Positions 6,519-28,875 of a stretch of DNA of 61,028 bases are shown here, in pieces (within the stretch, counting starts at the first letter, position 1; each line of letters opens with the position of its first letter). Under the pieces are notes generated by a model, which was not told the DNA's origin, ran no database searches, and saw nothing but the letters and a program-made list of their open reading frames with translations. The DNA is from a virus (lineage: Duplodnaviria; Caudoviricetes): positions 1 through 61,028 of IMG/VR virus record IMGVR_UViG_3300034272_001471; one strand, 5' to 3'. A program made the position numbers and the translations under genes.

Positions 6519-6690
6519 ACTGACCGACGAGCAGGCCGACGAGCTTGAAGATGCCGTGGCCTGCAGGATCGACGACCTGGATCGCAGGCTCCGGGAATCC
6601 GCACGTTCAGACGATGACCCCGGTGTCATTCAGGTCAGGCATGTGCAGTCTGTCCTGTCCGACATCCTGGAACTACTGGAGATTGCGTGA
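6505..6690 (+). CDS. Hypothetical protein
   Basis: GGAGG SD; MPTIELTDEQ. Confidence 0.55.
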   Translation: MPTIELTDEQADELEDAVACRIDDLDRRLRESARSDDDPGVIQVRHVQSVLSDILELLEIA

Positions 6691-7379
6691 TGCGAGTGCT
6701 GGACCTGTACTGCGGGGCAGGGATGGCGGCAGATGGGTACTACGACGCCGGGTTCGATGTGGTCGGGTGGGATGTGAGGCACCAGCCGAGTTACCCCTTC
6801 CAGCTCCATCGGGGCAGTGCCTTGGATGCCCTGGAAGATCGGGCCTACCTGCGGGAGTTCGATCTGATCCATGCCTCCCCGCCATGCCAAGCCCACACTA
6901 GGGCGAAGCACCTACGGGAAGCACAGGGTGGCAAGAGTAAGTACGACGACCTGCTGACCCCCACCCTGGCACTGCTGCGAGACTGCGGCGTGCCGTGGGT
7001 GGTGGAGAATGTGGTCGGTGCGCCCGGCATGGAGGGCGCCGTGGTCGAATGCGGCTCGGCCTACGGGCTGAAGGTCCGCCGGCACCGCCTGTTCCTGGCG
7101 TCCTTCCCCCTAGTGGGATCAGGCTGCAAGCACAAGGAGCAGGGCAAACCAGTGGGTGTGTACCACGTAATGGGCGACACCTGCAAAGGCGTGTGCAAGA
7201 AGACTGGCAAACTGGTGGTCGGCGGGTCCACTGCCAGGACGGTGGAGGAGGGACGCGCAGCCATGGGTGTCAGCCGCATGATCACATGGAACGAATTGAA
7301 GGAGGGCTTCCCGCCTGCGTACACTCGCCACGTTGGCGAGCAGGCGATGGCCTACCTGTTGAGGAGGGAGGTGGCCTGA
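6687..7379 (+). CDS. C5 cytosine-specific DNA methyltransferase
   Basis: Motif I (DLYCGAG), catalytic SPPCQ, ENV, RxRLF. Confidence 0.85.
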   Translation: MMRVLDLYCGAGMAADGYYDAGFDVVGWDVRHQPSYPFQLHRGSALDALEDRAYLREFDLIHASPPCQAHTRAKHLREAQGGKSKYDDLLTPTLALLRDCGVPWVVENVVGAPGMEGAVVECGSAYGLKVRRHRLFLASFPLVGSGCKHKEQGKPVGVYHVMGDTCKGVCKKTGKLVVGGSTARTVEEGRAAMGVSRMITWNELKEGFPPAYTRHVGEQAMAYLLRREVA

Positions 7380-11270: not shown

Positions 11271-11596
11271 TGGCCGTTCTCACATTTGGTACTACCAACC
11301 CTACGCGGTGGCTGGATGGGGATCGGGCGCGGCGGCGCCGCAGGTGGCGGGGCCGGTGGAGGTGGGGGTGCAGGCGGAGGGTCAGCCGGCCGCTTGCACT
11401 CGCAGTCAGACGGGCAGGGGCACGGAGTTGTGTGCCCATCGCCGTGGACAATGACGCCGTTCCTGCAGGAGCCGCAGCACTTCTTGGCCACGGGCTCAAC
11501 CGCCGCAGTGTGCAGGGTGTAGGCCGCTTCGACCGCCACCCGCTCAGTGAGGATGGGGGCAGCGAACATCGCCAGGAACCAGAGCAAACTATCCAT
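11252..11596 (-). CDS. Secreted Cys/Pro-rich protein
   Basis: Hydrophobic N-terminus; CCGSC...HGDGHTTPCPCPSDCEC; poly-Pro; C-terminal CENGQC. Confidence 0.6.
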   Translation of the reverse strand: MDSLLWFLAMFAAPILTERVAVEAAYTLHTAAVEPVAKKCCGSCRNGVIVHGDGHTTPCPCPSDCECKRPADPPPAPPPPPAPPPAAPPRPIPIQPPRRVGSTKCENGQCVPRT

Positions 11597-13742
11597 GGCG
11601 GAGCAGTCCTATGGTGCCGTAGTCAGGCAGACGCTGCGGTGGGTAGCCGTCGATGGACCCGTACACCCAGCAGTCGCCGTCCTCCACGCAGACATTGAAG
11701 TCGTCGGCCGATGTCAAGATCATCCCCGGCACCCACTCGCCGTACTCCTTGGGCCAGCCCTTCGGCTTCTGGTTCCAATGCCACCAAGAATTGGGGATCA
11801 TCCACACGCGGAACGGGAAGAACTCCTTGGTGTCGTCGTAGCCGGCGATGGCCATGTCATGTTTCCACCCACCCGGCGTGCGGTAGTGGACGCCCTTGGC
11901 GTTGGAGTCCACTGACCAGGACGCATACTGCCCGGAGTGAGCGGCGTACCCATTGAACAGGGCGTCCATCAGGTCAGCCTGCGACCGGACCTGTGTGATC
12001 ACGCCCACCTTATTCTTGCGGCAAAGCTCGCGGACGCTCTCCGGCACACCCGACCGCCCCCAGCGGGCGCCGATGGAGGAGTCGTACTTCGACAGGTCCA
12101 CCACCCCGTCGTACTTGGTGCGAGCCAGGAAGCCAACGTCCCGCTCAAACCTGGACGCCAAGCCCGGGCTCATGCCCTGGCCGCCATGCCCACGCGCCCC
12201 GTAGGTGGGCTCGGTGGCGCCCATGCGGAACCACTCTTCGGGCTCCTTCTTCACCAGGATCTCAACCGCCCTGGTCATGTCCCGGGCATTGCGACTACCG
12301 TGGCTGACGCAGTTATGCACTGCGTACCCGTTGGCGATGAATGCGTGGTCGCACTCCACCTCCAAGCAATAAACCGTTCCAGCAAACGGCGATACCTCAA
12401 TGCTGGCAACCCGCGCCGAGAATCCGCCATCGACCTTTACGGTCAGCGACCTCCGCCCGCCTTCCAATGCTGGTGGTCGGAGCTTCGCTGGAAACAAAGC
12501 GGCTGCGCTGTCGCCGTAGAAATGCACCTCGGAGGCGACCTTTGACCTGCCCCGCGGTTTGCGAGCGACCTCCGTGCATCGGATGCCGCAGGACATGGAC
12601 AAGTATTTCATGTCCCTGACAAGACCGCGGCATACAGATACGCCGCTGGCTCGGCACATCTTGTACTTGGACTTATGCCTAAGTCCGTTTTGCACATGCC
12701 CATCGCCCTCCATCCAGCCGCGCACGCACGCAAGACGAACGGCCGATGGCGAACCAAGGATTTCTTTAGGGACCCGCTTGGTATAGGTGTTCCCCTCGCC
12801 GCACGCCCGATATATCCACCTTGCAAATGGCGCGCACGGAAACTCAACGAACAGACAATTCGGCTTTGATGGCAGCACCCGAATCTTTGCAGGCACTCCG
12901 AGCTTGTCCTGCAAAATGCTGCGCAAGCACTTGGCGATATGAACCTCGTCGCGGCACAGGTTCCACACAAGGTTGGTAGCCGCGCCGCGTTTCGACTTTC
13001 CTGTTGACCCTTCGGCAAGCCATAGGCCGATGACCCACGCCATGTCGGCGTCCAAGGTTACATGCCTGTTGCACTCGTACTTAGCCCCGGAGATCCGCAC
13101 CTTGCCATCGCCGGCTCGGATTCGTCGGGGCTTGGATGCAACCTGCGCAAACTCATTCGGGTCTTGCGAGCATCCATCCTCATTGGCAAGGTCTATTGTG
13201 TGCAGATGCTCGCTGGCAATGCTTGTCGCCGGCAGCAGCACCCGCGATCCCTGGGCCAGTGCGTCGGCCCGAACCCAAGCCCTCTCTGATTCATTCAGCG
13301 GCGAGACGAACAGGTGGTCGGGAGTTGCTACAACAGCGTCCAAGCACCCCTCTGCACGCACGGAAACGACGCTGCCTGTGTACGGCTTGCTGAATGTCGA
13401 AAGCACTCGCCGCTTCCCGCCGAAAGGCGATGCGATAATGTCTCCACTCAGCACATCTTCAATGGCCTTTTCGGTGCCGTCGCCCATTCGCACAAGGGTG
13501 CCGGCAACGAAGCAGTCTCCAGTCGTTTGCTTCTCAGTAAAACATTTGGAGTCCAGCTTCTGTGCGTACTGCCAAAGGAGCGCACGCTTCCCGATGCCGA
13601 CGCCTTTGATGTTCGGTTCAGAGAAGTACTGGTACTTCTGCGTCTCCAGGAACTCCGAGTTGGCGCGGGCGTTGAACGTCCAGCCGGAGAGGCCGTCTTC
13701 GTACGCCCTTAGCAGGGAGTGCGGGGTGTCGAACTCACTCAC
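11589..13742 (-). CDS. Papain-like (C1-type) cysteine peptidase interrupted by an intein
   Basis: Spliced form reads Q-T-T-G-D-C-V-S-H-G (oxyanion Gln, catalytic Cys); later WKHDMAIAGYDD (His) and NSW (Asn); GTG start. Confidence 0.75.
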   Translation of the reverse strand: MSEFDTPHSLLRAYEDGLSGWTFNARANSEFLETQKYQYFSEPNIKGVGIGKRALLWQYAQKLDSKCFTEKQTTGDCFVAGTLVRMGDGTEKAIEDVLSGDIIASPFGGKRRVLSTFSKPYTGSVVSVRAEGCLDAVVATPDHLFVSPLNESERAWVRADALAQGSRVLLPATSIASEHLHTIDLANEDGCSQDPNEFAQVASKPRRIRAGDGKVRISGAKYECNRHVTLDADMAWVIGLWLAEGSTGKSKRGAATNLVWNLCRDEVHIAKCLRSILQDKLGVPAKIRVLPSKPNCLFVEFPCAPFARWIYRACGEGNTYTKRVPKEILGSPSAVRLACVRGWMEGDGHVQNGLRHKSKYKMCRASGVSVCRGLVRDMKYLSMSCGIRCTEVARKPRGRSKVASEVHFYGDSAAALFPAKLRPPALEGGRRSLTVKVDGGFSARVASIEVSPFAGTVYCLEVECDHAFIANGYAVHNCVSHGSRNARDMTRAVEILVKKEPEEWFRMGATEPTYGARGHGGQGMSPGLASRFERDVGFLARTKYDGVVDLSKYDSSIGARWGRSGVPESVRELCRKNKVGVITQVRSQADLMDALFNGYAAHSGQYASWSVDSNAKGVHYRTPGGWKHDMAIAGYDDTKEFFPFRVWMIPNSWWHWNQKPKGWPKEYGEWVPGMILTSADDFNVCVEDGDCWVYGSIDGYPPQRLPDYGTIGLLRHG
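12312..13514 (-). mobile_element. Intein (401 aa) with LAGLIDADG homing endonuclease
   Basis: Starts CFVAGT; block B ATPDHLF; LAGLIDADG-like VIGLWLAEGS and CVRGWMEGDG; ends VYCLEV...AVHN followed by Cys. Confidence 0.92.
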
Positions 13743-14139
13743 TCTGCCGCTCCACTTCCTTGCAGGCAGCGACGATCTGCCCTGCCACCACCTCATCCAC
13801 AGGCACGTTGTCCTGGGTGTAGTGCTTGGCCAGCACCGCTTCGACTGCCTTGTCTAGGCCGGGGTACTTCCCGACGAGGCCGGTCCCGCCAGCGGCCAGC
13901 CGGAGCGCGTCTTGGTAGACGGCGCGCCACGCTGACGTTGTGGTGATCAGCCGGCCTTTGTCCCTGGCCATCACCTCACCGAGCGCTCGGTACAGGCGGC
14001 CCACTGTGGCTCGGTCGGCATAGGAAGCCGACGCTAGAGCCGTGCGTACGGGACCAGTCGCGGCTGGCCGCTGGGCTCCGACAACAAACGACAACGCCAC
14101 CAACGCAACGGCGAGTGCCAGGGGGATGTGCCTATTCAT
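13735..14139 (-). CDS. Secreted or membrane-anchored hypothetical protein
   Basis: Signal-like MNRHIPLALAVALVALSFVVG. Confidence 0.6.
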   Translation of the reverse strand: MNRHIPLALAVALVALSFVVGAQRPAATGPVRTALASASYADRATVGRLYRALGEVMARDKGRLITTTSAWRAVYQDALRLAAGGTGLVGKYPGLDKAVEAVLAKHYTQDNVPVDEVVAGQIVAACKEVERQSE

Positions 14140-14342
14140 TTGAGCAGCGCCTGAAGAAGGGAGTTGCACGCGGCCTTGACCTCCTCCGACTGAGCGTTGT
14201 CGCGGATCTTGATCACGCTCTCCAGGTGCCGCAGCGTGTTGCTCTTGGCCGGCAGCCGGAATCCAGATACCTGCGGGAGGGCGAACTGCCACAGCACTAC
14301 AACTCCCAGGACGGCGAGCGACAGGATTTGAAAGAGACTCAC
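14136..14342 (-). CDS. Small membrane protein
   Basis: GTG start overlapping the subtilase stop; N-terminal TM helix. Confidence 0.55.
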   Translation of the reverse strand: MSLFQILSLAVLGVVVLWQFALPQVSGFRLPAKSNTLRHLESVIKIRDNAQSEEVKAACNSLLQALLK

Positions 14343-15277
14343 AGTATCTTGGCTCCGGGGATCCACAGCGTCACGCCTCCAACGGAGGACCGCACCTCGT
14401 AGTTCAGCAGCTTGTGGGGATCGACGAGTCCCCACCCATAGATCGAATCCCGGCCCGCCGCCCCGGCATCGCGGCAGGTTTCGGACAGGGCTTTGACGAC
14501 GCCAGCATGGTCTACCTTGCCGCCGGCCTGCTTCTGGGCGCTCACGTACAGGGCGAGCGTGCCGACCACAAACGGCGCTGCCATGCTCGTCCCGCTCACC
14601 GTGGCGTAGCCGTCTCCAAGCCATGTGGATGTAATGTCCTGGCCGGGCGCAGCCACTGCGATCTCCTTGCCACGGCTGCTGAACTCGCACGCATTGCCAT
14701 GCCTGTCCACTGCACCCACAGCCAGCGTTTCCTGGAACGCGGCCGGGTAGTTGACCGAAGCACCGTCGTTTCCGGCGGCGCACACCACCACCACGCCCGC
14801 AGCATGCGCGGCCTTGATCGCAGCATGGAGCTGGGCATCAGGCCGGCTACTGCCGAGCGACATGCAGATGAGGTCTGCCTTCGCCTCAGTCGCATGTCGA
14901 ACCGCCTGGGATACCGCATCGTTGCTGCCCATCCCGGAATGGCCCAGGACTTTGAGCGACAGCAGCTTGGCCTCCGGGGCAATCCCCTTGGCCGCGCCGC
15001 TCTTTGCCCCGATCACGCCAGCCACGTGCGTGCCATGGCCAAGCGTGTCGTAGACGTTGCCGTCGCTGCTGAAGTTGCGGTAGTCCTCAACCTGCAAGGC
15101 CGGGTGGGGAGCGACTCCGCTGTCCACCACTGCCACCGTAACGCCTGCCCCCTTGGTTGTGCGCCAAAGCAGCGGTATGCCGTACGCCTCCAACGACCAG
15201 TCCACCCCATCCGCCATCGACTGCGATGCCTGGACGATGTCAACCCGGTACGGTGGTAGGTGTACGTATCCGCTCAC
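14339..15277 (-). CDS. Subtilisin-like S8 serine protease
   Basis: Triad motifs VAVVDSG, GHGTHVAG, SGTSMAAP; AAGN oxyanion motif. Confidence 0.93.
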   Translation of the reverse strand: MSGYVHLPPYRVDIVQASQSMADGVDWSLEAYGIPLLWRTTKGAGVTVAVVDSGVAPHPALQVEDYRNFSSDGNVYDTLGHGTHVAGVIGAKSGAAKGIAPEAKLLSLKVLGHSGMGSNDAVSQAVRHATEAKADLICMSLGSSRPDAQLHAAIKAAHAAGVVVVCAAGNDGASVNYPAAFQETLAVGAVDRHGNACEFSSRGKEIAVAAPGQDITSTWLGDGYATVSGTSMAAPFVVGTLALYVSAQKQAGGKVDHAGVVKALSETCRDAGAAGRDSIYGWGLVDPHKLLNYEVRSSVGGVTLWIPGAKIL

Positions 15278-16018: not shown

Positions 16019-16205
16019 GCGTCAGATCATTGCGTATCGAAATAATCCCACGGTCCAAGTCGTCGCTGAGACAGAAGTACCCGTAGGCTTCTGGCATCTG
16101 CTTAACGCTGCGAAGGTAGACTCTCACCGGGAATTGCAGGGGCCACCGCTCTGTGGCCCACGCCTTCCACTTCCGCACCAATTGCTTGCGCCAGTCTTGG
16201 GGCAT
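15858..16205 (-). CDS. Hypothetical protein (metallopeptidase-like EEWAH motif)
   Basis: DTLCEEWAH...HHPTF. Confidence 0.5.
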   Translation of the reverse strand: MPQDWRKQLVRKWKAWATERWPLQFPVRVYLRSVKQMPEAYGYFCLSDDLDRGIISIRNDLTHDAMLDTLCEEWAHGRVVWLNDEEDTSDDPYHHPTFWCEYGRIQHASRGVEWG

Positions 16206-16488
16206 CTTCCAGCTCCACTATCAGCAGCCACTTGCGATTGTTGCGCTTGTGCAGGACGACCGGCACCTTGCCGCCGCAGTCGGCCTTGGCTTGGTCCACC
16301 CAGTCGTACGGGTTCCCACGCTCCGTGCGCTTCACCTCAACATGAATGCCGCCGTGGCCGACGACGATGTCCGGACTGTCCTTTGACCCGGAGAATTGCT
16401 GCCCCCGGCGGGCATGCACGCCGAACACGCGGGACCATTCGGCCGCCGCCTCTCGCTCCCCGCGGGCCCCCTTCTGCCGGCTGTTCAT
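16102..16488 (-). CDS. Holliday junction resolvase-like PD-(D/E)XK nuclease
   Basis: NSRQKGARGERE...SPDI...HVEVKR. Confidence 0.8.
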   Translation of the reverse strand: MNSRQKGARGEREAAAEWSRVFGVHARRGQQFSGSKDSPDIVVGHGGIHVEVKRTERGNPYDWVDQAKADCGGKVPVVLHKRNNRKWLLIVELEDAPRLAQAIGAEVEGVGHRAVAPAIPGESLPSQR

Positions 16489-16700
16489 TTGGCCCACCTC
16501 GCCAGCCGGCCCTGGTGATCCCGGGCCTCCACAATCGTCAGCTCCGGGAACTGCTCGGCCACAAGCCGGACGCACTCCGTGACGGACTTCTTGTCCAGCA
16601 CCCGGGCGTTGCTGCCGATCCACGCACCGACCCGGCCGTAGGCGGCGAAGTCCCGCCGGTCACCCTCAGTCGGCCAGAAGCAAGAGAGACGGTGGTTCAT
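16485..16700 (-). CDS. Hypothetical protein
   Basis: ORF track; ATGA overlap. Confidence 0.5.
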   Translation of the reverse strand: MNHRLSCFWPTEGDRRDFAAYGRVGAWIGSNARVLDKKSVTECVRLVAEQFPELTIVEARDHQGRLARWAK

Positions 16701-16720: not shown

Positions 16721-17101
16721 CTAGCATTCCTCGGGCTCCTGTGAGTGCATCAGGGTCGTCAAGGTTTCCACCCAGTGGTTTGGCCGGGGGGTTGCCACGC
16801 CATGCTCAACGAGGTAGGCGCTCAGGCTCTCGCCGGACTGCAGGTCGCAGAGGTCCCCAAGCACCCGGCCATACTCGTCTCGCAGCCATTCGGCCGTATC
16901 CAGCCGCAGCCGGCAGTGGTCGGCGTGGACCTCCACCCAGTCGCAGACCGCCTGCCGGGCGGCGTCGTCGCAGTCGCAGCCGTGGATTCGCATGTACATC
17001 GAAACCTGGGACTGGAGCTGGGGGCATGCCACCCGCAGGTGGACGGTGTCGGGCCGGGTCACGCGGATGACCTGTGCTGTCAAGGGGTCCGATGTCGCCA
17101 T
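16721..17101 (-). CDS. Thermonuclease (SNase)-like OB-fold protein, degenerate
   Basis: VIRVTRPDT...RIHGCD...RDEYGRVLGDL. Confidence 0.55.
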   Translation of the reverse strand: MATSDPLTAQVIRVTRPDTVHLRVACPQLQSQVSMYMRIHGCDCDDAARQAVCDWVEVHADHCRLRLDTAEWLRDEYGRVLGDLCDLQSGESLSAYLVEHGVATPRPNHWVETLTTLMHSQEPEEC

Positions 17102-17478
17102 CCGGTGGTGTTCTTCTGCCTCTGTTCTTCGTAGGCCGGCGGCAGTGGCTCTGGCTCGTAGCCCAGGTGCTGCTTGTGCCGAAGGCCGGCAAGAAACTGG
17201 GGGTCAAAAAACTCTGGGTCACTCTCACGCTTACAGGCGAGCAGTATACCCTTGTTCAGATCAGGAAGTCCAGTGACTTTGCTGCCGGAATGGAAGACGG
17301 CGTGGCAGTTCTGACACAGGCTCAGAAGGTTGCGGCGATCATGCTTGCGACCGGCCCCCTGGACCAGATGGTGAATCTCCAGGCGGCGCCGCATGTCCAT
17401 CTCCGGCCACCAGCAGACTGCGCAAGACATGTGACTTGCCGCAAACTCTTGTAGAGTCACCTTGTCTGCCCTGTTCAC
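17080..17478 (-). CDS. HNH endonuclease
   Basis: CAVC...LEIHH...NLLSLCQNCH. Confidence 0.75.
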   Translation of the reverse strand: MNRADKVTLQEFAASHMSCAVCWWPEMDMRRRLEIHHLVQGAGRKHDRRNLLSLCQNCHAVFHSGSKVTGLPDLNKGILLACKRESDPEFFDPQFLAGLRHKQHLGYEPEPLPPAYEEQRQKNTTGWRHRTP

Positions 17479-17816
17479 AGACCCTCCCCTTCTTCTTATC
17501 AACCTCTGATCCAGTTCTGCGTCTCGGAGTAGCGGTCCATGTTCACTGACTGAAGGCTCGGTATGGGCGCACGGCGACCAATCCCTGGTGTTGAGCCAGG
17601 GTTGGCCGCCGCCCATGTCCACCGACCGTTAGGACGTATACGGGCGTCTCACAACCGCCGGGGCGTGAGCATGCGACCTGCTTATCGGGCATCCTGGCTG
17701 CCCGTGTGACTTGGCCCTGTCGCTTTCGGCTGGCCTACCCGCTGCGTCACAATCCCTTTTGGTAGCGGGGATAATGCCGGGCGGCCAAAAGGTTGACCCA
17801 AACCCGACCGGCATGA

Positions 17817-18425
17817 TCACTCAAACTCAATCGTCGCATCCCATTCCGGGATGACAGTGCGACATTCTGCCACAGTCGCCCGGCAGAAATCCACTAACTT
17901 TGTGCGCTCGTAGTTCTTCACCGATAAAGTCATTCGGCACAGAGTCCTGGCGTAGCGGGCCATGGTCATGCAGTGCCTGTTCGTTTCCTGGCGGCCCGCG
18001 ATTCCGAGCTCCTGCCGGATCTGAGCGCCGCGCAGGTAGGCGGTCCACTCGTCCAGGATCATGGTCGGCCTGTCGGCCCATGGCCCAGCCTCACCCTGCC
18101 GGCGGTAGGTGGCGTAGATCGTCCCCCGCTCTGGCTCCGGGACGGCGTCGAACACTGCGGCCGTCCGCAGCGGCGGAATGGGAACCCACCGCACCCGCCC
18201 GCCCATGGCGTACAAGCCATGCTCCCGACCGCGGAACCGGGACAGGAAGTGACTGCCCTCATGCCCGTACGTGATCAGGTCTGGCTCCCGGGCGTCCGTA
18301 TCCCTCGGCAGGCGGCCGGCAATGTCCCGCAGCGTCGGGCCAAACCCCTGGGGCGGCGACCAGATCAGTGGCACCTCCGCCCGGCAGACGGCTGAGAGCA
18401 ACAGGAATACCGCAAAAGCCCGCAT
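17817..18425 (-). CDS. Secreted hypothetical protein
   Basis: Signal peptide-like N-terminus; HEGSH (HExxH-like). Confidence 0.6.
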   Translation of the reverse strand: MRAFAVFLLLSAVCRAEVPLIWSPPQGFGPTLRDIAGRLPRDTDAREPDLITYGHEGSHFLSRFRGREHGLYAMGGRVRWVPIPPLRTAAVFDAVPEPERGTIYATYRRQGEAGPWADRPTMILDEWTAYLRGAQIRQELGIAGRQETNRHCMTMARYARTLCRMTLSVKNYERTKLVDFCRATVAECRTVIPEWDATIEFE

Positions 18426-18612
18426 GTAGGACTAATGCCCTGCCAGGGCCCCTGGCGTGCCGCCTAAAGCCCGGCCGCCCTGGGGCGACCTCCCGCCCGG
18501 CCGGCGGCTGAAGTGCCGCCAGAACGCACAGGCGGGGCATCCACCGCCGCCCCGCGCTGCCTAAGAGCATGGAGCCCATCAGCAGACCGCAGGGCGACGA
18601 TGGATGGTGGCA

Positions 18613-18903
18613 TCACTCCTCGCGGACCAGCGACACGCCGAGCTCTCCGGGCTGTGCCGGGGCGATGGTGTCGGTGGCCACAAACTCCACCACGGCCGGC
18701 TGGCTGACGTTGCCTGCGTCGTCAACGTCCACCAGAGTCAAGACGACGGCAGCGTCCTGCGGCACCGTCACCTCACCGAAGGAGGTGGAGTCCGCACTAA
18801 ACGAAGTCGTCGTCGTTTCGCCGCCGACTGTCACCGACAGCCGCCTGGACACCACATCAGAATCCACAGCCGGCCCGGCCGTTACCGCATAGACCAATCC
18901 CAT
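18613..18903 (-). CDS. Beta-rich (Ig/Fn3-like) hypothetical protein
   Basis: GAGG SD; VDVDDAGNVS...DTIAPAQPG. Confidence 0.6.
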   Translation of the reverse strand: MGLVYAVTAGPAVDSDVVSRRLSVTVGGETTTTSFSADSTSFGEVTVPQDAAVVLTLVDVDDAGNVSQPAVVEFVATDTIAPAQPGELGVSLVREE

Positions 18904-19056
18904 AGAAAACCTCGCTCTGCGGATGAGACAAAAACGCACCGCAAAAGGCTGGCGCATCCGAAACGACAGCCTGCGGAGTTCGCTTGCAATAGATCGTCCA
19001 AACCACATCATGTGCGCTCCCGTCAGTCAGTGGGCGCGACGGGCCGTAGGGCGCGC

Positions 19057-19171
19057 TATACGGCTCCGCATAACGCCGGCGTCCGCCGTTACGCCGCAGG
19101 CTGGCGTTGATTCGGCGGGGTGATATACGGCAGAGGGTGCGATATACGGAACCGCATAAATGTGGTTCTGT
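19057..19171 (+). other. attI-like site: core CGCATAA-ATGTG-GTTCTGT with upstream direct repeats
   Basis: GTT at 19165 without an attC left arm; repeats tatacgg(ct/aa)ccgcataa at 19057 and 19143, gatatacgg at 19122 and 19141. Confidence 0.6.
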
Positions 19172-19173
19172 GG

Positions 19174-19476
19174 CTAGTCGGCAAGCGATTGCCTCAACTG
19201 TGATAGCGCCTTATGCGCTTTCCTTCGCTCTGGTGTGTTCATCGCGACAAGGCATTTGTCACTGAACGGGTCTATCTGCGCCAGGCATGCGCCAATATCG
19301 TCTAGCATCGCGTCCACATCAGGATGATTGTTTCGGAATCGCATGCCGTACATGAATGCCGCAAGTGCCGCCGGAGAGTCGCCCCCGTCCACCCCGCATA
19401 GACGGCAGTCGCGCTGAAACTCACGAAAACCCACAGAACCACGCATTGCATCAGACCGCTCATCAACGTCGCTCAT
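19174..19476 (-). CDS. Cassette 1 hypothetical protein
   Basis: AGGAGG SD and ATG inside the attC1 loop; MSDVDERS. Confidence 0.65.
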   Translation of the reverse strand: MSDVDERSDAMRGSVGFREFQRDCRLCGVDGGDSPAALAAFMYGMRFRNNHPDVDAMLDDIGACLAQIDPFSDKCLVAMNTPERRKAHKALSQLRQSLAD

Positions 19477-19522
19477 TGAATCATCCTCCTTTGTTCGCGG
19501 CTGCTGAATGCAGCCGTTCTCG
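19433..19522 (+). repeat. attC-like site 1 (90 bp)
   Basis: acagAAC cacgcattgcatcagacc...ggctgctgaatgcagcc GTTctcg. Confidence 0.75.
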
Positions 19523-19789
19523 CTACCCACCCGCAACGATCCTCTCGCAATGCTTGCATCGCTGGACTCCCTTTGCGAGCAGGCGAGCGGCGTACTCTGT
19601 CTTTGGTTTCTCGTAGCACCACGCGCCGCAAACAGCGCGGCCGGCGTTGTCGGTGCCGCCAGTGTCAGCAATCTTGATGCAGTGCAGGCGGGTCGCGTAC
19701 CAGCCCGCGAACCACGCGAAAGCACCGTCTGCGGCAGGCAGTTTCTCATGTAGCAGTTTTGGCGATTCGGCAACAGGTTTTTCGGTCAT
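19523..19789 (-). CDS. Cassette 2 hypothetical protein (Cys/His, possible Zn-binding)
   Basis: GGAG SD; LHC...VCG...CKHC. Confidence 0.6.
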   Translation of the reverse strand: MTEKPVAESPKLLHEKLPAADGAFAWFAGWYATRLHCIKIADTGGTDNAGRAVCGAWCYEKPKTEYAARLLAKGVQRCKHCERIVAGG

Positions 19790-19818
19790 GTCGTCTCCAG
19801 TAACATTGTGCCACTCAG

Positions 19819-19867
19819 CGAGAACCAAGCGATGCTGCGGACGAGCCGCTGATCGCAAGCGTTCTGT
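19819..19867 (+). repeat. attC-like site 2 (49 bp, minimal)
   Basis: cgagAAC caagcgatgctgcggacgagccgctgatcgcaagc GTTctgt. Confidence 0.8.
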
Positions 19868-19869
19868 GG

Positions 19870-20064
19870 CTACTTGCTCGCCTTTTTCTTCACGCACCGC
19901 AGCAACGCCTTGAGCCAGTGTGCGTCTCGCTCGGATAGCAGTTGCGGGCCTTTCGACGGGAACGCCTCCATCTTGTGAGCGTGCTGCTCCACACGCTTGA
20001 TGGCGTGCTTCAATGCAGACACCAAGTAGTATCGCTCGTCGTCGTCCAGCGTGACCTTCATCAC
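19870..20064 (-). CDS. Cassette 3, gene b, hypothetical
   Basis: ORF track; stop abuts R' of attC2. Confidence 0.55.
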   Translation of the reverse strand: MMKVTLDDDERYYLVSALKHAIKRVEQHAHKMEAFPSKGPQLLSERDAHWLKALLRCVKKKASK

Positions 20065-20303
20065 TTGCCTCCAGCCTGACGCTCCAGTGCCTCAATCCGC
20101 GCCCGAAGGACTTGCGTTTCTTTTATCAAGTCGCACACCACATCCGTGTCTCGGCTGTACGCGCGAGCGATCGTCCAATCAGTGGCGGCGAGTTGCTGAA
20201 TCCTGTAGAGCGCCCATCCAGAAAACAACAGGGCCGCGACGCTCGCCATCAACGCCACAGAACCAAGCGATGCAACGGACGGCCCTGCTACGTCATGTGT
20301 CAT
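20061..20303 (-). CDS. Cassette 3, gene a, membrane-anchored coiled-coil protein
   Basis: Start inside the attC3 loop; TM helix followed by coiled coil. Confidence 0.6.
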   Translation of the reverse strand: MTHDVAGPSVASLGSVALMASVAALLFSGWALYRIQQLAATDWTIARAYSRDTDVVCDLIKETQVLRARIEALERQAGGK

Positions 20304-20345
20304 GGTGAGTCCTCAGGTGGCCGCCGTTGATCTTCCGTGTTCTCA
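20257..20345 (+). repeat. attC-like site 3 (89 bp)
   Basis: acagAAC caagcgatgcaacggacggcc...ggccgccgttgatcttccgt GTTctca. Confidence 0.8.
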
Positions 20346-20702
20346 TTTCGTCCGTTCAAGCAGCCCGCGAAGAGCCACCACTCGGTCAGGCTCTTTCCCG
20401 CCGTACCACTCAGCGTCCAACTCGCGCCGGATAGCCGCCTCAATCGCCTCACGCTCCTTGTCGGTGAGCCCCCCGAAATCCACCGGGTCCATCGCCTCCC
20501 GCTCCGCGTCGGTGAGCGCTGGCAAGCGGTAGAGCGGAACGATGCCGTGATTCCCAGTTACTGCCTCGTCAATCGCTTTGGCCTCTTCTTCGATGCCATA
20601 GACATCGTAGATTCGCTGGCCGTCAGCAAGCACCACAGCCCACGCGCACGGCTCCCCGTGAGAACCACGCGATGGAATGGACTGCTCATTGGCGTCTGTC
20701 AT
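20343..20702 (-). CDS. Cassette 4 hypothetical protein (AWAVV / PLY / LTDxEREA family)
   Basis: Start inside the attC4 loop; stop overlaps R' of attC3. Confidence 0.7.
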   Translation of the reverse strand: MTDANEQSIPSRGSHGEPCAWAVVLADGQRIYDVYGIEEEAKAIDEAVTGNHGIVPLYRLPALTDAEREAMDPVDFGGLTDKEREAIEAAIRRELDAEWYGGKEPDRVVALRGLLERTK

Positions 20703-20747
20703 GTCTCATGCTCCTGTGTTCGCAGCCATTCATCGCTGGCGTTCTCA
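20659..20747 (+). repeat. attC-like site 4 (89 bp)
   Basis: tgagAAC cacgcgatggaatggactgc...gcagccattcatcgctggc GTTctca. Confidence 0.8.
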
Positions 20748-21080
20748 GTGTGTTCGTTCCAGCAGCCCGTCAATGACCGCCGCGACCTCCACGCTGTCGG
20801 CAAAACGCCCCGCGAAGTAGTCCTCTCGCACTCGCCGCAGCACCTTTCGCAACGCCGTCCGCTCCTCGTCGGTGAGCGTGGGATGCGGCTTCTGCACCAG
20901 CCCGAGCCTGAACAGGGCGGTCACAACATTGAAGGCAAATGGCGATACGCCGAGCTGGTCGCACCAGCGTTCCGCCGCAACTGCCATGGATGACCGCTCC
21001 GAAAACATCGCCTGCCCATGCTCCCCGCGAGAACCAGCGGATGCAGGAGACGGCTCGTTGGTGTCGTTTGATTGGCTCAT
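20745..21080 (-). CDS. Cassette 5 hypothetical protein (LTDEER...GLLER)
   Basis: Start inside the attC5 loop; stop overlaps R' of attC4. Confidence 0.7.
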   Translation of the reverse strand: MSQSNDTNEPSPASAGSRGEHGQAMFSERSSMAVAAERWCDQLGVSPFAFNVVTALFRLGLVQKPHPTLTDEERTALRKVLRRVREDYFAGRFADSVEVAAVIDGLLERTH

Positions 21081-21118
21081 GGTTTGTTCCTCGCCGCTCC
21101 TGATCCTGCGTGTTCTGT
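21028..21118 (+). repeat. attC-like site 5 (91 bp)
   Basis: cgagAAC cagcggatgcaggagacggc...gccgctcctgatcctgcgt GTTctgt. Confidence 0.8.
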
Positions 21119-21120
21119 GA

Positions 21121-21396
21121 CTACTCTGCCTTCCAGCCGTTGTTGATGTACGCCAGCACGGCGTGGAATGCAGCCACCTCGCCAGCCGTCCTAGCGGCGT
21201 CTGCGGTCAACGGCTCGCCGCCTGCCTTTGCGATCAGGCCGATAGTGTCTAGCCGCGTCTCGCGCTTCTCAATCTGCCACCGCATCCAGTCGATGAGGCT
21301 GCCATGCTGCCTGTTCATGGCATTGCAAAAAAACTCCTGCGAGTCGCGCAGACCTGAGATAAGGTTGTCTCGCCGTTTGATTGCGTTGTAGAGCAT
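21121..21396 (-). CDS. Cassette 6 hypothetical protein
   Basis: AGGAGG SD; ORF track. Confidence 0.6.
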   Translation of the reverse strand: MLYNAIKRRDNLISGLRDSQEFFCNAMNRQHGSLIDWMRWQIEKRETRLDTIGLIAKAGGEPLTADAARTAGEVAAFHAVLAYINNGWKAE

Positions 21397-21428
21397 TTCA
21401 ATCCTCCTGTTGTGTCATCCAACAAACC

Positions 21429-21477
21429 ACAGAACCAAGCGATGCTGCGGACGAGCCGCAGATCGCAAGCGTTCTGT
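21429..21477 (+). repeat. attC-like site 6 (49 bp, minimal; near-identical to site 2)
   Basis: acagAAC caagcgatgctgcggacgagccgcagatcgcaagc GTTctgt. Confidence 0.8.
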
Positions 21478-21480
21478 GGG

Positions 21481-21747
21481 CTACTTGTCTTCCGTTGGCA
21501 GGGCTGGAAGCGGCACCCAGTGGGTGACTGCCACTTCATTCCCGCGATCAATCCAGCAATGGCGACTGTATAGCGTGGCCGTGTAGCCGACGAACGGTCG
21601 CCCGCCGGCTGTCAGCGCCGCAACGTGCTGCCCAATATCAGGCAGCCGCTCCGACACCGGAATCCAACCGCCAAGGATCGCTTGACGGTTCGCCACAGAA
21701 CCAGCGGATGCAGGAGACGGCTCGGGTGTGTCGTTCGGTGTAGTCAT
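21481..21747 (-). CDS. Cassette 7 DUF551-like phage protein
   Basis: WIPVSERLP...VTHWVPLPALP; start inside the attC7 loop. Confidence 0.75.
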   Translation of the reverse strand: MTTPNDTPEPSPASAGSVANRQAILGGWIPVSERLPDIGQHVAALTAGGRPFVGYTATLYSRHCWIDRGNEVAVTHWVPLPALPTEDK

Positions 21748-21784
21748 GCCTTCTCCTTGCCGCTCCTGATCCTTCACGTTCTGT
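21695..21784 (+). repeat. attC-like site 7 (90 bp)
   Basis: acagAAC cagcggatgcaggagacggc...gccgctcctgatccttcac GTTctgt. Confidence 0.8.
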
Positions 21785-21787
21785 GGG

Positions 21788-22039
21788 CTACTTGCGAGCC
21801 TCGCGGATCGCCTTTGCCATCGCATCTTGGATACGAGGGTGTATCGGCACAGCCTGCGACTGAATCGCCCTCGGCTTCCTGCCGTAGACCAAAGGCCACA
21901 CTCTCCAGTCGGCTCTGGTGTCTGCGATCAGCATTCGCGCAACAGCATCGGCGTCCTCTTCGCAGCGAAATATCTCATGGTGGTGAAAACGCTCGCCAAC
22001 GCGAACCACTGCATACGCAACGGGGGTGCGATCGCTCAT
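21788..22039 (-). CDS. Cassette 8 hypothetical protein
   Basis: GGAG SD; PVAYAVV...VWPLVY. Confidence 0.6.
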   Translation of the reverse strand: MSDRTPVAYAVVRVGERFHHHEIFRCEEDADAVARMLIADTRADWRVWPLVYGRKPRAIQSQAVPIHPRIQDAMAKAIREARK

Positions 22040-22057
22040 GTCTATACTCCGTTCGCC

Positions 22058-22147
22058 ACAGAACCAGCGGATGCAAGAGACGGCTCGGCACCGTCCTGCG
22101 TGTTGTCGTTGCTCATGTCTCGCCGCTCCTGATCCTTCACGTCCCCA
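22058..22147 (+). repeat. attC-like site 8 (R' degenerate, GTC)
   Basis: acagAAC cagcggatgcaagagacggc...gccgctcctgatccttcac GTCccca. Confidence 0.7.
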
Positions 22148-22156
22148 CTCTCCAAC

Positions 22157-22363
22157 TCATGCCCGATCGGGACTATCGCAGCCAATTTCGCCGCTGCGCG
22201 CCGGGATCGTCTCCCATTTTCGCGCCGGATGTGCCCGCTCGGGACAATGCCTAGCGTTCGCTCGCAGCAGACGAATCTCGTCGTGTGCCGCAAACAGCCG
22301 GATCGACTGATACGCTGCCGACATCCAACCAGCGGCGGCCAGTATCCACGGCACCCAACTCAT
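22157..22363 (-). CDS. Small membrane protein
   Basis: N-terminal hydrophobic helix. Confidence 0.45.
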   Translation of the reverse strand: MSWVPWILAAAGWMSAAYQSIRLFAAHDEIRLLRANARHCPERAHPARKWETIPARSGEIGCDSPDRA

Positions 22364-22857
22364 ACCCGTAATCCCTCGCTTTCCGTCGCTTTTTCAATAC
22401 GACCGGCTCGCCCTAGTAGCCTCCGCACCACCTGCTCGGTGCGATCCATCGCCCGGTAGCAGGCGTCGTCCGCTACTCGCCCCAAGATCTCCCGCTCCTC
22501 GTCTGTGAGTGTGGGCTGGCGGTAGAGCGGGACGACCCTGTCGCACCCGGTGGCCCGGGGCCACGCATCTTTGATCCGAAATGCAATGCTTGTGATCTCG
22601 CCGTCAGGCCGCACCACAGCCCACGCCACTGCCCCCTGTGCAAGATGCCCCCGCCCACCCGTCGCTTCTCCCTTTGTATCGGGCCGCGTGTCGTCTAGGG
22701 GCAAGCCTCCATTCTTGTCGCCGGCCGGTGACTGCCGCTCTGGTGCGCTCCCCGACGTTCCGCCGGAGCCAGAGCCGAATAGAGACTGTTCGATTTGCCC
22801 GCCGTGCTGGACGCCAAGACGGTAGGCGGCAAGCAACGCTGCAGAGTGTTCGGTCAT
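22360..22857 (-). CDS. Hypothetical protein sharing modules with cassette genes
   Basis: AVAWAVV...VVPLYRQPTLTDEERE. Confidence 0.6.
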   Translation of the reverse strand: MTEHSAALLAAYRLGVQHGGQIEQSLFGSGSGGTSGSAPERQSPAGDKNGGLPLDDTRPDTKGEATGGRGHLAQGAVAWAVVRPDGEITSIAFRIKDAWPRATGCDRVVPLYRQPTLTDEEREILGRVADDACYRAMDRTEQVVRRLLGRAGRIEKATESEGLRV

Positions 22858-26247: not shown

Positions 26248-26877
26248 TCACTCCTCCTTCTTCCAGACCTTGTTGAACTCCTGCTCACACCGCTTGTACA
26301 CCTCGGGAGCAACCGCTCGCTCCTTCGCCCTCAGTCGGACGGTGTCCAAGTGTTTCTGCGCCGCCGCAATGTCCGGGGCGGTTGCGATAGCCTTCTTAGC
26401 CTCCGCCTCGTACTGCAGGGTCTTGGCGTGATTGGCCGGCGGGGCTGGCTCGGGCTGCGAGACACTCTGCCCGTCGTCGTCCGCCTCGCCACTAAACCCT
26501 CCAGCCAAGGCCATCAGCAGCGTCCGTTTCGCATATGTCATCGCAGCACCGAAGGACTGCATGTCGGCCTTGCCCATCAACAGCGGAGCGATGGCAGAGA
26601 TCCACTCACCGCTCTGGTGCCGCAGGGTGCCCATGACGATCCACTGATTGCCGATCAGGCCCGGCCGGAAATCCGGCAGACTGATACCCTGCTTCGTCAG
26701 CGGGCCTCGCAGCGCCTCACAGCAGGCCGCATACGAGGCGAACTTGCTGCGAAAGTGCGGGTTGGCACTGTCGTACTTCACGGTCGGGTAGTCGGCCTGG
26801 GCTGCCGCCAGGGCTTTCGTCAACTGGCCGGTGGCGGGCGAGCCGCTCGGCCCCAAGATCATGTTGCTGTCGTTCAT
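26248..26877 (-). CDS. erf: ERF-family single-strand annealing protein
   Basis: NPHFRSKFAS, LRHQSGEWI, QSFGAAMTYAKR, DDDG. Confidence 0.85.
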   Translation of the reverse strand: MNDSNMILGPSGSPATGQLTKALAAAQADYPTVKYDSANPHFRSKFASYAACCEALRGPLTKQGISLPDFRPGLIGNQWIVMGTLRHQSGEWISAIAPLLMGKADMQSFGAAMTYAKRTLLMALAGGFSGEADDDGQSVSQPEPAPPANHAKTLQYEAEAKKAIATAPDIAAAQKHLDTVRLRAKERAVAPEVYKRCEQEFNKVWKKEE

Positions 26878-27731
26878 AGAACCACCACCTCCTCCTGCTT
26901 CCGGGCCCACCGCGGGATCTCCAGCTCCTGAATCTCTCCGCTATCCAGCGGCAGATAGGAGCCGGTCGAACGACGCAGCCGGACCTCCTCCATCACACTG
27001 AGCAAACGCTGCCCAGCCTCCTCAATAAAGGCAGCCGGCAGGCGAAACACCCGGCACTGATACGGCGGGATCGTCTGCACAAAGACGAACGGCATGCTGA
27101 ACTGCGGCCACCCAACCTCCATGGCCCCGCGGCAGTACAGCCACGCCTGCTCTGCGTACCCGTACGAACACACGCTCTTGGGCAAAAGCTCCCACGGCTG
27201 GGAGGTGGTCTTCAGATCCCACCAAAGTTCATCCGTGACAGCGTCGGGCCGAACCTTCAGCTTGTGGCCGTTCTCCTCCTGCCAGAACACCGACATCTGC
27301 GTCTCGGTGGTCGCGTCAAACAGCGACTTGGCCGCCCGGTTATAAAACGCATTGTGCGTCATCTGCCGGTAGACCCACGCCTGATCCTCCGTGCAGCAGA
27401 TCCCAGTCTGCTCGGCAGCCCACTCCTTGTACGCCTTGGTGTTTCTGGAGCCGTTGGCCCCCAGCACGCCCTCCGGTGCAACGCAGACCAGCTCGTCGAA
27501 CAACTGCCCGGCCACCATCCCGGTCAGCAGCCGGTCGAACTCGTCCCCAGTCCTGGTGGCCGAACTGCCGGCAAACATCGACTGGCCATTGTCCATCCAC
27601 AACTGTGCCTCCCCGCCGCCCCTCGCCACCTGACAGAGGTACGACCGGCTGTCAAACGTCTTGTTGCCGTGGTACGCGGCATTGGACATGCCGACGATCT
27701 TGACCGGCCCCTTCGATACATCGATGTTCAT
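26874..27731 (-). CDS. RecE/exonuclease VIII-like PD-(D/E)XK exonuclease
   Basis: MSNAAYH, KVRPD, DLKTT, YGYAEQAWLY, FVFVQT.PPY. Confidence 0.82.
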   Translation of the reverse strand: MNIDVSKGPVKIVGMSNAAYHGNKTFDSRSYLCQVARGGGEAQLWMDNGQSMFAGSSATRTGDEFDRLLTGMVAGQLFDELVCVAPEGVLGANGSRNTKAYKEWAAEQTGICCTEDQAWVYRQMTHNAFYNRAAKSLFDATTETQMSVFWQEENGHKLKVRPDAVTDELWWDLKTTSQPWELLPKSVCSYGYAEQAWLYCRGAMEVGWPQFSMPFVFVQTIPPYQCRVFRLPAAFIEEAGQRLLSVMEEVRLRRSTGSYLPLDSGEIQELEIPRWARKQEEVVVL

Positions 27732-27931
27732 TTGTACACCTCCGCTTGTGAAAAAGCCCATCCGTGGGCACATGCCATCCTTGTGTTTAGCGCCCGCCCC
27801 GGAACGCTTCGCGAAACTGTCCAACGACCAGAAGGCCGAGACAGAGCTCCCACCTGTGCAGCCAGATGCACAGGGTCAGGCCAGCCAGATAGGCGACCTT
27901 TAAGATTGGGGCGGCCGATTCGCAGAGGGCG

Positions 27932-27966
27932 ATGAGGCGGCTGCTAACCAACTGAGCTAGCTGCCC
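27932..27966 (-). pseudogene. tRNA 5'-half remnant (CAT anticodon, Met/Ile2-like); candidate attP
   Basis: Minus strand GGGCAGC-TAGCTCAGTTGGTTAG-CAGCCGCCTCAT; no T-arm. Confidence 0.55.
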
Positions 27967-28047
27967 GGATGTTTGACCGTACCGCTTTTGCGGGGGGTTC
28001 CCACCGTGACGAAGGCTGCTAGAAAAGCCCCTCTCTTGAGGTGCAAC

Positions 28048-28875
28048 ATGACGCTCATCGACTTGGCCCGGCAGTACCACAACAGAGTCGGCGGATCGCC
28101 CGGCTACCTGGAGCAGTTGGAGTGCTTCGTTCGACGGCTTCCATGGAAGGCCGCTGAACTCTCTCCAGACAGGATCGATGCCTACCTGACTGACGCGCTG
28201 CGACATTTGGCTCCCTCCACTGTCTGCAACCACCGAAAAATGCTGCGTTGCCTGCTGCATTTCGCCGCCGAGACGCGGCTTGTGGACGGCAATATACTCC
28301 GGCCTCTGCGAAAGGTCAAGCGAAATCCGCCGAACCCAAGAGCGTGGAGTCACACGGAGATTCGGTGCCTTTTGGATGTCGCCGCCAAATTGGTTGGTGG
28401 TCGGAAGTGCCCGCGGAGCCTGCTCGCTAGGGCATGGATTCTGGTGGGCTACAGCACCGGGCTGCGACTTGATGACTTGCTGTCGATTCGCCATGACCAA
28501 ATCCGTGGCCAGAGGTTGTGCCCAAGCCAACGCAAGGTCGGCCATCCGCATGTCTGCTGGCTGGATGACCTCGCCATGGCAGCCATACGCGAGCTGCCAG
28601 TGCTTGGGCCGCGTATCTTTGGCGATCTGATCTGCCGAGACAAGGCCATGGCCATGATGCGGCAGATTGTCCGGACGGCCGGCCTGCCTGGATCAACGAA
28701 GTTTCTGCGGCGCAGCGGTGCAACCTACTGCGAGATCGCCGGCAAGGACGCCAGTGGACACTTAGGACACCGGACGCCCAACATGAAAGCCTACTACGTT
28801 GACAGGCTCTTGCTGGCCGAAGAAAAGAAGCAGGAGCCGACGACGCTGCCCCTAGTTCTGGCGGACCAGCCCTAG
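28048..28875 (+). CDS. Tyrosine recombinase/integrase
   Basis: TGLR, QRK, KFLRRSGAT (HxxR variant), LGH, YY; GAGG SD. Confidence 0.85.
   Translation: MTLIDLARQYHNRVGGSPGYLEQLECFVRRLPWKAAELSPDRIDAYLTDALRHLAPSTVCNHRKMLRCLLHFAAETRLVDGNILRPLRKVKRNPPNPRAWSHTEIRCLLDVAAKLVGGRKCPRSLLARAWILVGYSTGLRLDDLLSIRHDQIRGQRLCPSQRKVGHPHVCWLDDLAMAAIRELPVLGPRIFGDLICRDKAMAMMRQIVRTAGLPGSTKFLRRSGATYCEIAGKDASGHLGHRTPNMKAYYVDRLLLAEEKKQEPTTLPLVLADQP

Follow-up and report, generated by a model that had tools for sequence, protein, structure and literature searches.

The stretch analyzed here, a whole IMG/VR virus record of 61,028 nucleotides (nt) (IMGVR_UViG_3300034272_001471; CheckV rating, complete) referred to below as the window, belongs to a lake-water phage that carries an array of small-gene cassettes with attC-like hairpins, headed by an attI-like unit at 19057–19173. 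This unit is probably an attI-type site homologous to the attI of chromosomal integrons in the Planctomycetota, standing at the head of an eight-cassette attC-type array in a phage that has no integron integrase. Judged by comparison, the site is real, conserved, and homologous to bacterial attI sites, and its putative use as an entry point for cassettes has comparative support. Because close copies of the site adjoin integron integrase genes in the Planctomycetota, the phage probably swaps small genes with the enzyme of its host.

The unit and its parts are arranged as follows:

19057–19173, plus strand: attI-like unit, a conserved block of ~120 nt on the strand corresponding to the attC top strand
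19057–19073, no strand assigned: distal imperfect palindrome, TATACGG nn CCGCATAA, at the left edge of the conserved unit
19122–19130, plus strand: direct repeat gatatacgg, a core-like box oriented as the GTT box
19141–19159, plus strand: proximal palindrome, gatatacgg at 19141–19149 followed by the inverted ‘L’ box CCGCATAA at 19152–19159
19160–19173, plus strand: spacer ATGTG (5 nt) and ‘R’ box GTTCTGTGG (19165–19173), with GTT at 19165–19167

The plus strand of the window corresponds to the attC top strand because the strand of the hairpin model is here the minus strand, and on the plus strand 19057–19173 stands at the 5′ head of the array, the usual place of an attI. The putative crossover is placed between G19165 and T19166. 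Two 17-mers (tatacggctccgcataa at 19057–19073 and tatacggaaccgcataa at 19143–19159) are alike at 15 of 17 positions, can be extended as a repeat to 26 nt at 85%, and each match on both strands, forming imperfect palindromes. Boxes of the gatatacgg type stand upstream of the GTT at 19122 and 19141, with a distal copy at 19056–19064, and the repeat at 19122 is kept as GATATACGG, GTTATACGG, or GATATGCGG among the aligned phage copies. The simple-site arrangement (two inverted boxes, a short spacer, and GTT) is, as a layout of sequence, common to 17 phage and five bacterial copies. A preliminary description of this DNA had singled out the same locus as an attI-like entry site, and its letters, coordinates, 15/17 repeats, gatatacgg copies at 19122 and 19141, and GTT at 19165 are all correct, with limits that match the ends of the BLAST alignments described below.

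The repeated elements exceed chance expectation. With up to three mismatches, TTATGCGGNNCCGTATA has five matches in the window against a shuffle mean of 0.39 (0 of 100 shuffles reach five), four of which are the two sites on both strands while one is at 52172. The heptamer CCGTATA has eight matches in the window compared to 1.27 expected (0 of 100 shuffles reach eight), and three of the eight fall within 19057–19149. Outside the window, one unrelated 25-kilobase (kb) viral contig (L047, L063, and L046; L-numbers are labels of the sequences compared) contains four copies of a perfect palindrome, TTATGCGG nn CCGCATAA; no hairpin array was seen there, and the motif may serve another use. The pattern GAACCANNATTTATGCGG was found in 14 stretches of viral contigs, only three of which are relevant (L028, L031, and L035), the other 11 being taken as chance given their low G+C and unrelated flanks. 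A large terminal hairpin pairing CCACAGAACCACAT with ATGTGGTT-TGG near 18994–19007 was rejected, as the far partner is unconserved in other loci and 18890–19185 folds no better than shuffled sequence.

The two 17-nt palindromes stand 86 nt apart within a gap of ~160–270 nt that is non-coding and precedes the next gene; they could also be the operators of a dimeric regulator, or part of a promoter or terminator that ends an early operon, with a dual role possible. This explanation is very improbable, as scans for promoters and terminators returned no sigma-70-like promoter or intrinsic-terminator-like site in 18900–19200, the predicted fold of 18890–19185 is no better than that of shuffles (z, −1.41; 18 of 200 shuffles as good), Rfam has no match at an expectation value (E) ≤0.1, and the relatives of the palindrome-plus-GTT core adjoin bacterial intI genes.

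The hairpin array

A covariance model of the hairpins, R1, recognizes eight sites in the window, every one of them on the minus strand within 19432–22148 (E, 1.9e-22 to 2.4e-9), and none to the left of 19432 at E ≤1, in agreement with the preliminary description, which saw no attC hairpin upstream of the first GTT.

19432–19523, minus strand: hairpin 1 (R1 58.7 bits; E 3.3e-14)
19818–19868, minus strand: hairpin 2, compact, 51 nt (R1 42.1 bits; E 2.4e-9)
20256–20346, minus strand: hairpin 3 (R1 78.1 bits)
20658–20748, minus strand: hairpin 4 (R1 69 bits)
21027–21119, minus strand: hairpin 5 (R1 67.7 bits)
21428–21478, minus strand: hairpin 6, compact (R1 54.4 bits)
21694–21785, minus strand: hairpin 7 (R1 86.9 bits), whose loop holds the ribosome site and ATG of a DUF551 gene
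22057–22148, minus strand: hairpin 8, at the far end of the array (R1 70.8 bits), with a degenerate outer box

Read on the minus strand, the order is the stop codon of a small gene, xxxxGAAC, an imperfect hairpin, and a closing GGTTCxxxx, and CCACAGAAC has nine exact copies in the window, all inside 19165–22064. The 19-nt hairpin arm is present without change in 21 other stretches of viral contigs, in which the hairpin is kept, the flanking sequence differs, and changes in the stem are compensated. Across an alignment of 55 copies from phage and bacterial loci, with pairs counted on a 20-pair structure, 89.5% of cells are paired as against 77.6% in shuffles, and changes on both sides of the pair occur in 12 of the 20 pairs overall and in eight of the 12 inner-stem pairs. 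The covariation score of 0.316 (shuffles, 0.119) is reached by none of 500 shuffles, and controls in which the alignment was slid score 0.03–0.09.

The conserved elements correspond to the core of an attC site, with inverted AAC...GTT boxes, an unpaired spacer, and an inner stem. The AAC and GTT are invariant (55/55 copies), the spacers adjoining the boxes are unpaired (5 nt against 4 nt), and pairing reaches 96.5% in the inner stem, the three outermost pairs being formed in only ~55–65% of copies. The loops range from 4 to ~45 nt. Two bulges, C and T, occupy fixed places of the 3′ arm, on the bottom strand by bacterial context, and in ten copies the aligned strand contains a G-T pair that equates to an A-C mismatch on the opposite strand. 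Some hairpins (19818–19868 and copies in L004 and L006) have mismatched outer boxes (e.g., CACAGAAC with GTTCTCGC), which is expected if the part past the GTT comes from the neighbouring cassette. An explanation of the type of repetitive extragenic palindromes or IS200 elements was tested, and no Y1 transposase match was found. With eight model hits and no intI, the window has the composition of an attC-site cluster without an integron integrase (CALIN) and not that of a complete integron, in which intI accompanies at least one attC.

Relatives beside bacterial integrase genes and in other viral loci

The hairpin family extends to bacteria, where it adjoins integron integrase genes. The 20-nt pattern of the hairpin arm was found in 23 stretches of a species-representative genome collection, 14 labelled as Planctomycetota lineages, and most of these stretches hold ~90-nt hairpins of the same family. 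Based on the curated cut-off of TIGR02249, by which integron integrases were called, four of the five such genomes tested possess an integron integrase. Arrays recognized by R1 are directly 3′ of intI (10 hits in L130, three in L131, seven in L134, and three in L133; weakest E, 0.89), with all hits on the strand opposite intI and the genes between the hairpins on the integrase strand, the latter including four of ten cassette genes tested that have Pfam matches on that strand (ParE-like, PemK, DUF2513, and YcxB). By this genomic context, the hairpins are attC sites belonging to Planctomycetota integrons with an intI directed towards the array, and by the same context the strand of the hairpin model is the attC bottom strand. 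A tandem array next to intI is a property of the bacterial members of the family and not of the phage array itself.

The core of the unit also has bacterial relatives at the position expected of an attI. Among 151 sampled genomes from the order of one array-bearing genome, 23 have an integron integrase above the cut-off, and in five of 28 intI-downstream regions a like core is present on the integrase strand, 189–373 nt past the integrase match. One of these (L123) has CCGCATAA-ATACTG-GTTC, an 18-nt core identical to that of three phage copies (L003, L028, and L031), and another (L160), downstream of intI, shares with the window an identical 13-nt ATATACGGAACCG followed by GTTCTG. The remaining three (L149, L120, and L122) possess a TATAC(T)GG box, a CCGCA-AA box, and GTT, with 23 nt from box to GTT compared to 22 in the window. 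The first cassette and the first attC come after the site in L130 and L131. The preliminary description had suggested a comparison with attI sites next to intI, and in the five positive regions the core, with its repeat boxes, occupies the interval from intI to the first cassette on the expected strand.

In an nhmmer search of 370 kb of bacterial loci with a profile of the 17 phage copies, L112 (E 7e-5), L123 (1e-3), L160 (0.25), and L149 (2.2) ranked at the top, with the site in L112 adjoining a serine resolvase and not intI. In this locus (5950–6950 of a metagenome-assembled genome contig labelled Candidatus Kuenenia), the attI-like core heads an array of nine hairpins, and the neighbouring serine resolvase matches PF00239 at E 5.6e-28. 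Additionally, four short contigs binned in bacterial genomes (L098, L104, L110, and L105) contain hairpins of the phage type along with cassettes that reach 98.7% identity to viral contigs; these are likely phage or prophage fragments and give a hint of Pirellulales hosts.

Among the phages, the unit is constant and its neighbours vary. Core and model searches were combined for 17 viral loci, 16 of which could be assessed (L071 was left out, with its site at the contig edge). In all 16 the site marks an end of the run of hairpin hits and turns its GTT towards them; it occupies the strand opposite that of the model, and its far side is free of hits. BLAST alignments to ten other viral loci share 80–92% identity from 19050/19057 to 19169–19179 and nothing beyond, the sequences diverging past GTTC into different cassettes. 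The unit therefore has sharp ends, at the coordinates given in the preliminary description, and the conservation boundary that the preliminary description predicted is present in these loci. A constant platform followed by a variable first cassette, as expected of an attI, is found in the ten loci and in the comparison of L005 with L010.

The cassettes of the window have their own, separate relatives in other viral loci:

Cassette 1: L010 only, 94.7%, there too beside the attI-like unit
Cassette 2: L006, 92.4%
Cassette 3 (part): L019, 95%
Cassette 4: L014, 90.9%
Cassette 7: L008/L018, 90%
Cassette 8: L005, L010, L012, L021, L022, and L024, 90–95%

The site is followed by cassette 8 in L005, by cassette 1 and then cassette 8 in L010, and by cassettes 1 to 8 in the window. 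The only break in collinearity between L010 and L005 is the 342-nt cassette 1, flanked on both sides by GTTCTGTGG; the two share 70% identity to the left of the site and 98.7% in cassette 8. This difference is the pattern that insertion or excision at an attI would be expected to leave, and the comparison shows cassettes moving between diverged phages. Together, an attC family beside intI, a core downstream of intI, a conservation boundary in ten loci, and a one-cassette difference at the GTT support the attI-like entry site put forward in the preliminary description.

Population variants point to further junctions at the boxes. Part of 18600–22400 is covered by 24 lake or freshwater metagenome runs, one of which may be the source, and Logan contigs of four runs were compared with the stretch; in single runs, some parts of the array have no contig cover. 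Joints at the boxes connect 19519 to 22155 (X2) and 19869 to 21121 (X16; depth, 391), and a joint that ‘goes back’ connects 22139 to 19515 (X2 and X4). Contigs of X16 and X2 have the attI letters immediately ahead of 21778, and one contig of X4 has the first letters of a different cassette immediately after 19173. Further joints are internal to hairpins or paralogous genes (e.g., 19507 to 21090 and 20518 to 22060). The contigs show that alternative junctions exist, not recombination within one phage population.

Several of these observations could be accommodated by short-homology shuffling, in which the repeats are swapped by the general recombination of the phage and the terminal unit is only the last repeat. 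The phage encodes an exonuclease VIII-like protein (26874–27824; phrog_412, E 1.8e-34) and a RusA-like resolvase (16102–16623), every junction is within an identical 9-mer, and some of the metagenome joints are inside hairpins or paralogous genes. Despite this, the explanation is unlikely: shuffling by homology needs no invariant AAC and GTT, unpaired spacer, or fixed bulges kept through compensatory changes, and the same hairpins and terminal core adjoin bacterial integron integrase genes. Further, the outer boxes pair in only ~55–65% of copies, which is expected if exchange is at the GTT and not anywhere along the repeat.

Enzymes, cassette genes and phage setting

The window has no integron integrase gene beside the site; its sole tyrosine recombinase is Xer-like and 8.8 kb away.

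27973–28875, plus strand: divergent Xer-like tyrosine recombinase of 300 residues (XerC/XerD models, E 4e-6 to 1e-6, far below cut-offs; PF00589, 14 bits)

This gene is encoded against all of its neighbours and overlaps a spurious-looking open reading frame on the minus strand (27787–28551). The protein is 78% identical to its counterpart in the array-less record L002 and 59% identical to that in L003, and it has no BLASTP similarity to a bacterial IntI; PF00589 is present above cut-off (27–53 bits) in 10 of 10 other array-bearing viral records tested. The simplest reading would be that the Xer-like recombinase is the ordinary integrase of the phage and that the array relies on the integron integrase of the host. 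The Xer-like protein is not an integron integrase and, as an alternative catalyst, is a candidate only.

The unit might instead be a dif-like core for XerCD or for the Xer-like enzyme of the phage, with a role in integration, dimer resolution, or cassette exchange. The site has a 10-6-10 layout with partly inverted arms (TTATGCGGTT against TTCTGTGGCT, 7/10), and these other array-bearing phages, like this one, have a recombinase. Compared with the E. coli dif sequence (PMC2731167), a 28-mer of the unit matches 8 of 11 positions in the XerC arm, none of six in the centre, and 5 of 11 in the other arm (13 of 28 overall), and the right arm is simply the R box of the array. The 8/11 count for the XerC arm in the preliminary description is accurate, but the resemblance gives no specific support for Xer because the layout is that of any tyrosine-recombinase core site. 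Moreover, L002 has the recombinase and neither site nor array, an integrase is present in most temperate phages anyway, and the best relatives of the unit adjoin integron integrases and not chromosome termini. Only a low probability is attached to this explanation.

The cassette genes of the phage differ from those of bacterial integrons in orientation, and their hairpins precede the genes because the genes are on the bottom strand; a gene before its attC on the top strand, the usual order of a cassette, is not found in the phage. Two cassette genes show how the hairpins contribute to the start of translation:

19174–19476, minus strand: cassette 1 gene of 100 residues, whose stop codon TAG abuts the R box and whose start codon is in the loop of the next hairpin
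21481–21747, minus strand: DUF551 gene (DUF551, E 2.1e-8; phrog_60, E 1.8e-14), with ribosome site and ATG within the loop of hairpin 7

The loops of long-type hairpins carry GGAG, ATG, and a conserved N-terminal peptide. Long-type hairpins in the window (21694–21785, 22057–22148, and 21027–21119) and in many other loci (e.g., L005, L012, and L013) encode the peptide ..NDT.EPS(P/L)ASAGS.., which is joined in frame to unrelated genes, and at 22044–22116 the shared peptide closes as a 24-codon leader immediately ahead of the real start codon. Because the shared N-terminal peptide or leader precedes unrelated genes, the hairpin can be regarded as a portable translation-start module. Several cassette genes (20435–20542, 20843–20877, and 22489–22535) share an internal repeat, ..PLYR.P.LTD.ERE.., and on this basis form a paralogous family spread across different cassettes.

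The array belongs to an accessory block of the phage genome:

18461–22849, no strand assigned: accessory block missing from the closest relative, L002, and made up of two small genes and, to their right, the attI-like unit and the array

L002 is the nearest whole-genome relative (~74% identical) and is syntenic over 27000–22850 and 18460–14003 of the window. From ~10 kb onward nearly all genes of the window are on the minus strand. Structural genes recognized are those for terminase, a P22-like portal, a head protein, and a tail protein, and other recognized genes encode a helicase, the exonuclease VIII-like and RusA-like proteins, an HNH endonuclease, a subtilase, and an intein-bearing protein. 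The intein, with a LAGLIDADG domain (PF14890 and PF14528), splits a protein of 735 residues at 11589–13796 on the minus strand, and the subtilase-family peptidase (PF00082, E 3e-48) at 14339–15277, also on the minus strand, is within the block of replication and recombination genes. By the searches made, the phage has no cultured relative: positions 17000–22000 have no megablast match to a GenBank phage, and the terminase has a single weak hit among GenBank phages (25.9% identity).

A further explanation is that the unit and array are a relic, the dead and unused remnant of a captured fragment of a host integron, as might be suggested by the lack of an integrase in cis and by a block that is dispensable in the nearest relative. 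A relic is decidedly unlikely given a sharp-ended unit that remains 80–92% identical in ten loci with flanks that are unrelated or only ~70% alike, a position and orientation constant in 16 of 16 loci, and a one-cassette difference precisely at the GTT of the unit. The phage-specific design, with reversed genes and starts in loops, argues for long evolution within phages, not recent capture.

A number of observations weigh against the interpretation of 19057–19173 as an attI-type site served by a host integron integrase. TIGR02249 has no match in the window at E ≤1 and none in five other array-bearing viral records (four at least 99% complete) at E ≤0.001; the preliminary description called this the phage's own capture site, which applies to the site, while no integron integrase is encoded. 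The presumed host is derived solely from sequence kinship to sites in metagenome-assembled genomes. Only five of the 28 intI-downstream regions are positive, the rest being without the core, and a short degenerate core searched over the 151 genomes was no commoner than its reversed control and is uninformative. No cassette is shared between phage arrays and arrays beside intI, in a sample too small to be evidence either way, and the nine matches of at least 200 nt between phage-array and bacterial cassettes are all to short contigs of uncertain origin (L098, L110, and L105).

Other points on this side concern the hairpins, the cassettes, and the junctions. The extrahelical G of attC has been called absolutely conserved, the first extrahelical base being a bottom-strand G (PMC2727003), and the hairpins have C and T instead, as do the bacterial copies beside intI. 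The phage cassette genes are on the hairpin model (bottom) strand, opposite to bacterial cassette genes. In L002, 672 nt without hairpin or palindrome replace 18461–22849, and the predicted conservation boundary at 19165 is not seen in this relative because the whole block is missing. The dif-like arm of the preliminary description is generic and contributes nothing specific. The metagenome joints were read from contigs that may belong to related phages and in many cases have sides of <30 letters, and because all junctions are inside a 9-nt identical box, site-specific and short-homology recombination are indistinguishable there.

Should the unit act as an attI-type site, a host-supplied integron integrase would bind its boxes during infection, and the site would recombine, between G19165 and T19166, with the folded single-strand attC hairpin of a circular cassette. 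Whole cassettes would be inserted or lost beside the site, and attC × attC events would reshuffle the rest of the array. Because the phage genes run leftward, the operon has the site at its downstream end, where a new cassette would land, in keeping with the promoter-distal entry anticipated in the preliminary description. The acting enzyme, its action on phage DNA, and the strand chemistry are what we infer from these comparisons.

More broadly, it is possible, at a little under an even chance, that phages of the Planctomycetota keep an integrase-less platform of their own, borrow the host integrase, and trade accessory genes among unrelated phages, with reversed cassettes keeping two pools apart. 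A phage cassette would be silent in a bacterial integron, and vice versa, because the phage hairpin precedes the gene and supplies the start signals, and as cassettes would be silent in the other type of array, the two pools would be kept apart while one enzyme is shared. The case yields an attI family defined by comparing bacteria and phages, together with a phage lineage that retains docking site and cassettes but not the enzyme, and with natural variants set apart by one cassette at the predicted crossover. Should the host enzyme act, phages would both draw on integron integrases as clients and hold a second reservoir of cassettes, which would bear on the renewal of phage accessory genes, possibly counter-defence genes, and would open the site requirements of a non-proteobacterial integron to direct testing.

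Comparison with known systems

The closest likeness is to the attI of Planctomycetota integrons (L123/L132, L160, L149, L120/L130, and L122/L131), which like the phage site consist of a TATAC(T)GG box, an inverted CCGCA-AA box, 5–6 nt, and GTT, take the same strand with respect to the attC arrays, and have the first cassette starting at the GTT. In the bacteria, intI is 189–373 nt upstream and the cassette genes read away from the site, whereas the phage site has no integrase beside it, genes that read towards it, an extra distal palindrome, and a GC-rich hairpin segment. Integrons with an intI that reads towards the array are known from other phyla. The Planctomycetes have been listed among integron-bearing phyla (PMC2426708).

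The attI1 of class 1 integrons is described as a simple site of two inversely oriented boxes with crossover at the GTT and two core-like direct repeats upstream, these repeats being present in attI1 and variable in other classes (PMC3146285). The phage unit shares the simple site and the upstream repeats, a likeness of layout, and is of comparable extent (65 bp in attI1 and ~50–120 nt in the phage). It differs in that attI1 is between divergent intI1 and cassettes, in a promoter-proximal position, and in that the proximal repeat of the phage abuts the L box as a palindrome.

CALIN, as defined in PMC4889954, which notes that attI is unknown for most integrons, include examples in virulent phages, and integron parts including integrase-less attC clusters have been described in 21 phages, with IntI1 supplied in trans recombining five phage attC sites (PMC9892861). 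Like the window, CALIN of these sources have at least two attC-type sites and no integron integrase nearby; unlike them, the phage array keeps a conserved attI-type head, reversed genes, and start signals in some loops. The present hairpin family is widespread in uncultivated lake phages and may overlap with the phages listed in PMC9892861. A literature search, conducted mostly at the level of abstracts and without supplements, found no published integrase-less platform of attI plus attC in Planctomycetota phages.

Core sites of the dif/XerCD type resemble the unit in having two partly inverted arms around a 6-nt centre, with the difference that the context of dif is the replication terminus and that of the phage unit a cassette array. 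The promoter-stem-loop (PeSL) cassettes of T4-type phages, in which short conserved intergenic stem-loops flank small accessory genes in a plastic region and modules are exchanged at them, have an early promoter and probably work through homology. In contrast to PeSL, the phage unit has no promoter-like site, and the phage units have bacterial relatives beside integron integrases.

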